A stretch of DNA of 20,418 nucleotides from a virus: the UHGV virus genome UHGV-0101751; one strand, given 5' to 3'. Both the position numbers and the translations under genes were made by a program. The notes beneath the pieces are model-generated. The model worked only from the letters and a program-made list of their open reading frames with translations. It ran no database searches and was not told the origin of the DNA. Positions 17,107-17,448 of this stretch are shown in pieces. Each line of letters opens with the position of its first letter. The stretch's first letter is position 1.

Positions 17107-17124
17107 GTATTTACTTACTTATCT
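17101..17124. repeat. AT-rich palindrome AGATAAGTA-TTTACT-TACTTATCT
   Basis: Perfect 9-bp arms overlapping the stop codon of the 16801 gene; member of the TAAGT/ACTTA palindrome family. Confidence 0.8.
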
Positions 17125-17448
17125 AATATGTATAAGATCACTTTGTTTTCGTTGAGATGCGACTGTTTGAACGTTAAATATAACTGCAAACGAAGATGCA
17201 TACCTGGCAGTAGCCTAAGAAGCCAAACACCAGCGAGGTCAGTTTCCAGCCTCGTCACCAAAATGGGACACACTGAGCGAGTGTGATTGCAGAACGCAGA
17301 ATAGGGCATATTGCACCATCCATGCCCTATTCAATGAAGTAACAGAATGGGCGGTTGGTTTCATCATTCCATTCACCCATCCCGGTTTCAGCTGACCGTC
17401 CATTCTGTTACGTCATTTCCATTACTTATGTCGTTTATACTTGGGTTA

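Follow-up and report, generated by a model that had tools for sequence, protein, structure and literature searches.

A conserved phage RNA derived from the mRNA-like half of transfer-messenger RNA, with a predicted antisense arm to host tmRNA, in an SSU5-type phage-plasmid

We have analyzed a stretch of 20,418 nucleotides of the UHGV virus genome UHGV-0101751 (hereafter the window, numbered along the one strand presented), whose source is a phage-plasmid of the SSU5/pHCM2/pMT1 type. Downstream of genes for a DnaB-like helicase and an ATP-dependent DNA ligase lies a region, 17107-17448, that an original prediction had described as structured, non-coding and adjacent to the insertion point of a Tn3-family transposon, suggesting a small RNA, a recombination site or an origin that had served as the transposon target. 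We found that 17145-17297 belongs, as RNA of the + strand, to a conserved family of phage RNAs derived from transfer-messenger RNA (tmRNA, the product of ssrA) in which the mRNA-like half has been kept. All the evidence is computational, the sequence retrieval (two pattern scans of IMG/VR that gave ~140 loci, 90 of them distinct) was biased by its patterns, and the family is moderately diverse. The parts of this core and the promoter in front of it are the following:

17110-17138, + strand: inferred sigma-70 promoter, with -35 TTTACT (17110-17115), a 17-nt spacer and -10 TAAGAT (17133-17138), from the alignment of relatives
17145-17173, + strand: arm antisense to host tmRNA (GUUUUCGUUGAGAUGCGACUGUUUGAACG), with a predicted duplex of 23 bp and -28.2 kcal/mol
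17174-17185, + strand: A/U-rich linker of 12 nt that holds the resume context (UUAAAUAUAACU); U 17181 is at -5 and A 17182 at -4, from a 90-sequence alignment
17186-17218, + strand: tag frame without start codon, GCA AAC GAA GAT GCA TAC CTG GCA GTA GCC TAA, reading ANEDAYLAVA and stop, from the four-family alignment
17204-17233, + strand: hairpin resembling helix 5 of tmRNA (CUGG...CCAG), its apical part holding the stop codon; pairing is 99% over 28 sequences, one compensatory pair
17234-17268, + strand: pseudoknot a (helices 3 and 4), stem 1 CGAGG 17234-17238 with CCUCG 17250-17254, loop UUCCA 17244-17248 with UGGGA 17264-17268
17269-17297, + strand: pseudoknot b (stem 1 being helix 5 of the covariation count), stem 1 CACACU 17269-17274 with AGUGUG 17280-17285, loop GCG 17277-17279 with CGC 17295-17297

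The tag frame was revealed by the alignment of four families, which have in common ten codons of the form GCA AAC GAx ... CTG GCA GTA GCx TAA. Other phages encode ANDNVFLAVA, ANDDQFLAVA or ANEEMYLAVA at this place, and the tag of E. coli ssrA is ANDENYALAA. As in tmRNA, the frame starts at an alanine resume codon and not at an initiation codon: in the window a TGA is found in frame six codons before 17186, with no ATG, GTG or TTG in between, and no start codon was found on this frame in any of the families. The 27 distinct frames encode 13 tag peptides, all of the type AN[DE]xx[FY]LAVA, and their variable sites number 2, 5 and 9 at codon positions 1, 2 and 3, respectively. Synonymous swaps were common (GAT/GAC, TAT/TAC, TTT/TTC, GCA/GCC/GCT, CTG/CTA), codon 6 was always aromatic, either Tyr or Phe, and the stop was kept in 27 of 27, be it as TAA, TAG or TGA. 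Flynn et al. (2001) reportedly located the SspB determinants of the tag at N3, at D/E4 and at an aromatic amino acid in position 7. The phage tag retains all three of these, and the replacement of ALAA by LAVA probably alters ClpX recognition. Upstream of the frame, position -4 was invariably A and -5 was U or C in the 90-sequence alignment, as judged by eye. These are the positions of A86 and U85, respectively, of E. coli, which set the reading frame on tmRNA, A86 being the key one (PMC2481249). Natural variants of the tag also exist, ANEEMYLAAA (V to A, restoring a host-like ..AA end) and AKDDQFLAVA (N to K), at the loci L130 (- strand, ~13410-13536) and L136 (3112-3238), and they are possible natural tests of tag function.

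The hairpin that holds the stop codon is followed by pseudoknots, the same arrangement that characterizes tmRNA. In pseudoknot a, whose pairs in the window were read from the sequence, helices 3 and 4 had double changes in 3/5 and 2/4 pairs and were 98.6-100% paired. Stem 1 of pseudoknot b was 100% paired with 2/6 compensatory pairs; its stem 2 has only 3 bp in the window, and four different helices substitute for it in other subfamilies. Altogether, for the five core helices computed on 28 non-SSU5 sequences, pairing stood at 99.4% and compensatory changes affected 8 pairs (46 cells), a result that none of 500 shuffles matched, with slid controls at 30-44%. Two compensatory pairs fell in a pseudoknot helix, and two G-U pairs were invariant in the core helices, so the molecule is an RNA of the + strand. 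With all SSU5-type sequences left out of its construction, a covariance model found the window at 17176-17302 with 77.9 bits (E = 2.5e-18), and its only other match below E = 1 in 51 kb was nt 80-137 of E. coli ssrA (19.3 bits, E ~0.009). The Rfam model tmRNA_permuted aligned its own resume and tag region onto the phage tag frame.

The tRNA-like half of tmRNA was not found. The core shows no 7-bp acceptor stem with G3-U70, T arm or 3' CCA, and by inspection none of acceptor stem, T arm or T-loop motif, or CCA was conserved within the element. ARAGORN, which called E. coli ssrA, reported no tmRNA of any type, permuted included, in the window, in the uninterrupted relative L001 or in more than 20 loci. 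No tRNA cloverleaf was recognized in the region by ARAGORN or by Rfam RF00005, in agreement with the original prediction that it is not tRNA-like. At gathering score Rfam gave nothing on the element in the window or in 12 loci; below threshold, tmRNA_permuted reached 12.8-19.9 bits (gathering score 47) and beta_tmRNA 11.9-14.7 bits (gathering score 84). Pseudoknot 1 before the resume codon is also missing in the window, where only ~22 nt lie between the GCGAC block of the arm and that codon and no conserved helix was found in them, and the permuted layout with an acceptor piece upstream of the coding piece does not apply, the promoter directly preceding the core in SSU5, Felix and Rouf types. 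Several candidates for the missing parts were considered and rejected. The 16-bp closing helix of lambdoid members (AGTGCTCTTTCCAG/AACAGGTAAGAGCATT) belongs to repeated hairpins at cassette boundaries and is absent from the other families, the CACCA at 17256-17260 and that in the loop of the next hairpin (IR1, see below) are not conserved, and a tRNA-like cassette found at the loci L009 and L022 is not universal. The core is thus not a tmRNA, one-piece or two-piece, although part of it resembles tmRNA in its predicted working. Elsewhere in the window, at 9550-9630 (- strand), ARAGORN called an 81-nt tRNA-Lys(TTT) that is doubtful, the Rfam tRNA model having no gathering-score match anywhere in the window.

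The 5' arm of the RNA is predicted to pair with host tmRNA. In the window, 17145-17154 would pair with nt 95-104 of ssrA, 17158-17168 with nt 82-92 and 17172-17173 with nt 76-77. Besides the A-rich linker and the frame-setting A86, the target (nt 76-104) includes the resume codon as well as codons 1-5. The invariant blocks GUUUUCGU and GCGAC of the phage RNA complement ACGAAAAC (codons 3-5) and GUCGC (-3 to +2, at the resume codon) of E. coli ssrA. Local alignments of the phage 5' regions were made against reverse-complemented E. coli ssrA, with 1000 shuffles as control. The lambdoid arm (ssrA nt 68-105) scored 36 against 15.4 +/- 2.2 and was equalled by 0/1000 shuffles, the Vi01-type arm (nt 68-104) by 0/1000, the Rouf (nt 68-106) and Felix (nt 81-106) arms by 1/1000 each, the arm of the window (nt 82-104) by 23/1000 and that of the L014 subtype (nt 81-104) by 91/1000. 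The register on ssrA was identical across all phage families, and the longest predicted duplexes, in lambdoid members, reached 41 bp and -47 kcal/mol. The computed binding of the arm was on average -31.5 kcal/mol to host tmRNA versus -13.6 to the phage's own template, with the host stronger in 51/51 variants. Complementarity was perfect exactly where phage and host templates differ (AAAUGC versus AGUCGC, and codons 3-6), and the arm was interrupted where the two templates are identical (GCAAACG). Besides, in the centroid fold of the window RNA the arm, the linker and the first codons (~60 nt) are unpaired. The extended and conserved complementarity to a host RNA, above chance and above self, is as expected for a trans-acting antisense RNA. 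Intramolecular partners for the 5' GUUUUCG were also sought; the candidates differed in register from family to family and host pairing was preferred. An anti-ssrA oligonucleotide in routine use to block tmRNA in vitro (TTAAGCTGCTAAAGCGTAGTTTTCGTCGTTTGCGACTA) has the same target (bioRxiv 10.1101/692111), and the principle of stopping with such an oligonucleotide the release of stalled ribosomes by tmRNA is described in PMC2373887.

Transcription is predicted to start near G17145. The -10 boxes of the relatives are TATGAT or TATAGT in the same register; Mooglevirus Sf19 has the promoter TTGACA-17-TATAGT (11/12) and the Rouf type TTGACA-16-TAGATT (10/12). In the SSU5, Felix and Rouf types the element comes immediately after a sigma-70 promoter, and the RNA would therefore begin at or near the invariant GUUUUCG. 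In HK620 the core has the annotated pR'/qut on one side and the late terminator on the other, and would therefore be part of the late leader RNA. In Sf19 it is found within a tRNA array, between tRNA-Ile and tRNA-Arg, and in other phages just upstream of tRNA genes.

The flagged stretch matched 772 plasmid records, mostly IncFIB and non-mobilizable, from Klebsiella, Escherichia, Enterobacter, Yersinia and Salmonella, among them the Y. pestis plasmid pMT1 and the S. Typhi plasmid pHCM2; phage SSU5 was matched as well. When the region was compared with phage genomes by sensitive BLAST, only 17141-17262 matched, at ~74% identity, in hundreds of unrelated phages. The element is carried by 417 phage records, which include Ounavirinae (FelixO1-like, Mooglevirus), Ackermannviridae (Vi01 and relatives), P22-like and lambdoid phages (HK620, an Enterobacter phage) and 46-48-kb siphoviruses of the Rouf type; SSU5-type phage-plasmids carry it as well. 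Phage matches always fell in unannotated DNA, and in RefSeq the locus has no annotation in 258 E. coli genomes. A scan of species-representative genomes for the AAATGCAAACGA-type core gave one match, in Pseudocitrobacter. Versions in hosts whose ssrA differs were not found, and the ssrA target is common to all known hosts. Two neighbours of the element may be mentioned. The gene directly upstream of the element-bearing tRNA array of Sf19 (gp23, L003 1-822) codes for a DUF2828 protein, and in Klebsiella phage Bullseye (L005 3599-3813) the small RNA STnc100 of Rfam was found above threshold (53.4 bits) ~1 kb downstream of the element, in a run of tiny annotated open reading frames (ORFs) that may be non-coding RNA genes.

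In lambdoid late leaders and in Vi01-type phages the core sits in an array of variable cassettes of 30-110 nt (L022, - strand, 1130-810; L009, - strand, 5590-5270; HK620, L129 1290-1730; Vi01, L128 1385-1790). Each cassette is closed by near-identical hairpin arms of 12-16 bp (GGTAAGrGCATT ... AGTGCTCTTTCC), and order and content vary between phages. The whole has the look of a modular array of small RNAs that share their processing stems. One of the cassettes (L022, - strand, 1120-1060; L009, - strand, 5340-5275) is tRNA-like: it shows a long closing stem whose third pair is G-U, a hairpin closed by a loop of 9 nt, and a T arm (GAGGGTTCGAATCCCTA). A D arm is lacking, and there was no call for this cassette from ARAGORN or Rfam.

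Around the core of the window we found these other features:

17097-17125, no strand assigned: AT-rich palindrome (AGATAGATAAGTA-tt-TACTTACTTATCT) over the stop codon of the upstream 101-aa gene, overlapping the -35 box, from the sequence
17299-17332, + strand: inverted repeat 1 (IR1), a hairpin directly 3' of the core with arms GAATAGGGCAT/ATGCCCTATTC, 9/11 pairs compensatory
17333-17417, + strand: inverted repeat 2 (IR2), a structured module specific to the SSU5 family with a 23-bp stem and a 39-nt interior, 93% paired, 4 compensatory pairs
17449-17486, no strand assigned: Tn3-family terminal inverted repeat, 38 bp (GGGGTTTGAGGGCC...ACGCTAAG, GGGG start), from the sequence and the break of homology

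The palindrome is conserved in SSU5-type relatives, with the compensatory change AAGTA/TACTT versus AGGTA/TACCT seen by eye, and could be the terminal hairpin of the upstream gene or an operator. IR1 was where the original prediction had placed it, with arms (17299-17309 and 17322-17332) complementary at 11/11 positions around a 12-nt loop. IR2 was also present at its place with a longer stem than the 17 bp described, its arms (17333-17355 and 17395-17417) being 23 nt long and 91% complementary; the two repeats are adjacent and not nested. Their conservation in relatives, the lack of which had been named beforehand as refuting the prediction, was examined on 32 distinct SSU5-family sequences, in which pairing was kept through double compensatory changes in 9/11 pairs of IR1 and 4/23 pairs of IR2. 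Of the cells of both repeats 92.5% were paired versus 32-51% for slid partners, and 0/500 shuffles attained the observed score. For the RNA 17145-17420 the computed folding energy was -89.3 kcal/mol, a value attained by 0/200 dinucleotide shuffles, which gave -67.0 +/- 5.0 (z = -4.44). A permissive Rfam scan on IR1 and IR2 gave chance miRNA and snoRNA matches only. The position of IR1 holds a hairpin after the core in every family, with homologous arms in lambdoid, Vi01 and Felix types (..TAAGrGCAT / AkTGCyCTTA..), and in the other phage families these hairpins enclose variable modules of 30-50 nt. IR1 and IR2 are structures at the RNA level, conserved modules downstream in the same non-coding region, and probably serve as protection or stabilization of the 3' end, in processing, or as separate cassette RNAs. 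In an SSU5-type contig (L125, - strand, 3489-3596) a deletion joins the 5' arm of IR1 to that of IR2 (GGGAACAGAATGGGCGG), hence IR1 is dispensable in at least one natural variant. A segment of IR2, 17349-17358 (GGGCGGUUGG / GGGCGGTTGG), is identical in sense at 10/10 positions to nt 53-62 of E. coli ssrA, within pseudoknot 1; most SSU5-type relatives retain it, and with E = 0.3 in a small search the match is weak and may be due to chance.

The Tn3-family repeat starts at 17449 exactly as had been described. It lies beside a transposase gene (tnpA, 17482-20343, - strand, an ORF of 953 aa that matches DDE_Tnp_Tn3 at 4e-153), and homology to uninterrupted plasmids ends at 17448: identity continues through the junction in only one record, a Shigella flexneri plasmid, and every other relative loses it exactly there. 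What originally lay to the right of 17448, a comparison proposed beforehand, is the rest of a non-coding gap of ~1.07 kb (L001, pTB212) with further long hairpins, a tRNA-Asn(GTT), which is the nearest true tRNA and lies ~740 nt downstream, and a terminator-like hairpin. An integrase gene is found ~2 kb downstream in the relatives. The transposon inserted into the next hairpin, in its first arm (GGGTTA|AAAGCGGCGACGTAACCC; GGGTTA|...TAACCC in relatives); it parted the upstream section from the tRNA and cut the operon 150 nt past the core. The insertion is a simple cut through a non-coding RNA operon, in the lineage of the window only, and the idea of a special transposon target does not hold. 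Downstream of the insertion point the uninterrupted relatives have a 20-bp inverted repeat (L001 6689-6708 and 6785-6804), whose arm (AACGTTGAGATCACTGA) has CGTTGAGAT in common with the antisense-arm region of the core.

From the three suggestions that had been made, only the small RNA is supported, by helices that keep their pairing through compensatory and G-U changes, by a sigma-70 promoter that stays in register in relatives and by the place of the element within tRNA arrays or the late leader of unrelated phages. The absence of a convincing ORF was confirmed, the mechanical ORFs of 52-64 aa being missing from many relatives. Iterons were looked for and only short direct repeats of two or three copies at chance level appeared; no origin- or att-like feature was found in the region. 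It is also unlikely to be the 3' untranslated end of the upstream gene, the scan for intrinsic terminators (GC-rich hairpin plus U tract) giving 0 sites in 17000-17500. The original prediction is therefore supported as to a small RNA and missed the content that defines it, the tag template and the antisense arm 5' of the hairpins.

How the RNA might work can be proposed tentatively. We give somewhat less than an even chance to a model in which it is half a tmRNA that docks on the tmRNA of the host, masks its template and supplies its own tag, making a non-covalent chimeric tmRNA. A hybrid of two RNAs is the simplest way to reconcile a tag frame that seems to be translated with an RNA that cannot be charged with an amino acid. 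The RNA would be made from its own promoter or, in lambdoid phages, as part of the pR' late leader, and its single-stranded 5' arm would anneal to host tmRNA, where A86, the resume codon and the first codons would be masked in the manner of anti-ssrA oligonucleotides. The intermolecular helix would then lie 10-15 nt before the phage resume codon, the place that pseudoknot 1 has in native tmRNA. The Ala-charged tRNA-like domain would come from host tmRNA, together with SmpB binding, and the template from the phage RNA, so that the products of stalled ribosomes would receive (A)AN[DE]xx[FY]LAVA and not (A)ANDENYALAA, with the SspB-type motif kept and the ClpX-type LAA end changed. In E. coli the resume codon is 12 nt after pseudoknot 1, which can be replaced by unrelated sequence (PMC2481249), and this makes an intermolecular helix at that position plausible.

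Several points weigh against this hybrid. The transcript, the pairing with tmRNA and the LAVA-tagged proteins are predictions, and a non-covalent chimeric tmRNA of host and phage is without precedent. The downstream pseudoknots of the host would remain attached, and the loading of ribosomes with the foreign template is only presumed; long duplexes could be RNase III substrates instead. The promoter of the window is weak (8/12), was missed by the consensus scan and is inferred from the alignment only, and in a Y. pestis RNA-seq catalogue of small RNAs the three assigned to pMT1 (sR082, sR083, sR103) do not include one at this locus. The arm of the window taken by itself is moderately significant, and that of the L014 subtype weaker. 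Diversity is modest (82% mean column identity) in a family whose sequences were mostly retrieved by patterns that fix parts of the tag, and the skew among codon positions has by itself only p ~ 0.1.

The main rival is a pure inhibitor or decoy of tmRNA, in which the arm would block trans-translation or trigger RNase III cleavage, the tag would never be translated and the tmRNA-like body would merely stabilize the RNA or titrate tmRNA-binding factors (S1, RNase R). We take it to be less likely than the hybrid, if by no means far-fetched: the arm matches the target of the anti-ssrA oligonucleotides, which are known tmRNA inhibitors, there is no tRNA-like domain, and the duplexes of lambdoid members are as long as 41 bp. 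It leaves unexplained, however, the features of the template (switching among stop types, synonymous third positions, the aromatic codon 6, the invariant A at -4) and the break of the duplex, in every family, at the GCAAACG shared with the phage's own template. The RNA could otherwise be the coding piece of a two-piece tmRNA encoded by the phage, the acceptor piece with T arm, acceptor stem and CCA being elsewhere in the phage genome. That some lambdoid arrays have beside the core the tRNA-like cassette with its T arm and G-U third pair, and that the element is usually in or beside tRNA arrays, would fit. We consider it improbable, as neither HK620 nor the SSU5, Felix, Rouf and Vi01 types have the cassette, ARAGORN found no tmRNA in more than 20 loci, the RNA has no 5' acceptor strand at its start, and the conserved arm complements host tmRNA and no phage sequence that we found.

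Two further explanations do away with a working RNA of this kind, and both seem to us very improbable. A decaying ssrA fragment, that is a functionless pseudogene or the scar of recombination or integration at host ssrA, is suggested by ssrA being a common integration site and by the tmRNA gene fragments already known (PMC4131195). But integration scars carry the 3' end of ssrA, missing here, and the element has been conserved across five unrelated lineages of phages and in the 772 plasmid and 417 phage records, with compensatory changes in five helices, its own promoters and the antisense plus sense layout kept throughout. An element acting as DNA (an origin, a recombination site or a transposon hot spot), or the 3' untranslated region or terminator of the upstream gene, would agree with the several inverted repeats near the helicase and ligase genes and with the integrase downstream in relatives; it is just as hard to sustain, given that iterons and terminator-like sites are absent, that invariant G-U pairs mark a + strand RNA, that the same core occurs in tRNA arrays and in late leaders of phages with unrelated replication modules, and that the Tn3-family insertion is confined to one lineage.

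Compared with bacterial one-piece tmRNA (SsrA, RF00023), the phage RNA has in common the start-less Ala resume codon, U and A at -5 and -4, a 10-codon tag of the AND type, the stop in a helix-5 hairpin and H-type pseudoknots downstream. It differs in lacking acceptor stem, T arm and CCA, in its size (~150 nt versus 363), in having two pseudoknots after the tag versus three and, in the window, no pseudoknot 1, in a tag that ends in LAVA and not ALAA, and in the extra 5' arm antisense to tmRNA. The two-piece (permuted) tmRNAs of alpha-proteobacteria, cyanobacteria and others are a parallel in that template and tRNA-like functions would be on two paired RNAs, and the Rfam permuted model is the best match to the phage core, though sub-threshold. 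However, both pieces of the known ones come from one permuted gene of the same genome and pair via the acceptor stem and helix 2, whereas the partner of the phage RNA would be an intact host tmRNA paired via its template region. Phage genes derived from ssrA are known too. Surveys place phage tmRNAs only in mycobacteriophages (Bxz1 and others) and Bacillus phage G, with a tRNA-like domain only in DS6A, where the half tmRNA retained can inhibit that of the host (PMC4131195, PMC11915505). Unlike those RNAs, complete or reduced to the tRNA-like domain, the one described here is the reciprocal, template-only half with an antisense arm, and enterobacterial phages with such a template-only RNA are not listed in those surveys. 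The anti-ssrA oligonucleotide of ribosome display addresses the same region of tmRNA, and its 3' part GTAGTTTTCGTCGTTTGCGACTA closely matches the arm (GTTTTCGT, GCGACT blocks); it is an artificial, fully complementary and template-less DNA that blocks tmRNA in extracts, unlike the phage arm, which is RNA, loop-interrupted at GCAAACG and fused to a replacement template.

Lambdoid prophages of enterohaemorrhagic E. coli encode in late-region leaders the RNAs AgvB and AsxR, anti-sRNAs or sponges that neutralize host non-coding RNA by base-pairing. RNAs of this type target Hfq-dependent small RNAs by mimicking mRNA target sites, and we know of none that targets tmRNA or carries a translatable template. 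Neither these tags, nor a tmRNA-like phage RNA of this kind, nor a natural anti-tmRNA were found in the searchable full-text literature, subscription-only papers being outside its reach. As far as we have found, neither a natural antisense RNA against tmRNA nor a template-only tmRNA half seemingly under translational selection has been described before.

The tmRNA-SmpB system is the universal ribosome rescue of bacteria and a drug target, some phages (lambda-immP22 hybrids, Mu) depend on tmRNA, and phages of the FelixO1 and Vi01 types are used in typing and therapy. The element is widespread among the plasmid and phage records given above and unannotated in RefSeq, and the idea can be tested directly with existing strains. 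Our data suggest that the ribosome rescue of bacteria may be silenced by phages or given a new programme by them. Should the hybrid model be true, this would be the first parasite that swaps the template of the host rescue machinery, and the two functions of tmRNA would be divisible between RNAs of different genomes. There would also be a new degron-like tag, every rescue event adding ...[FY]LAVA and not the ClpXP degron ...YALAA.

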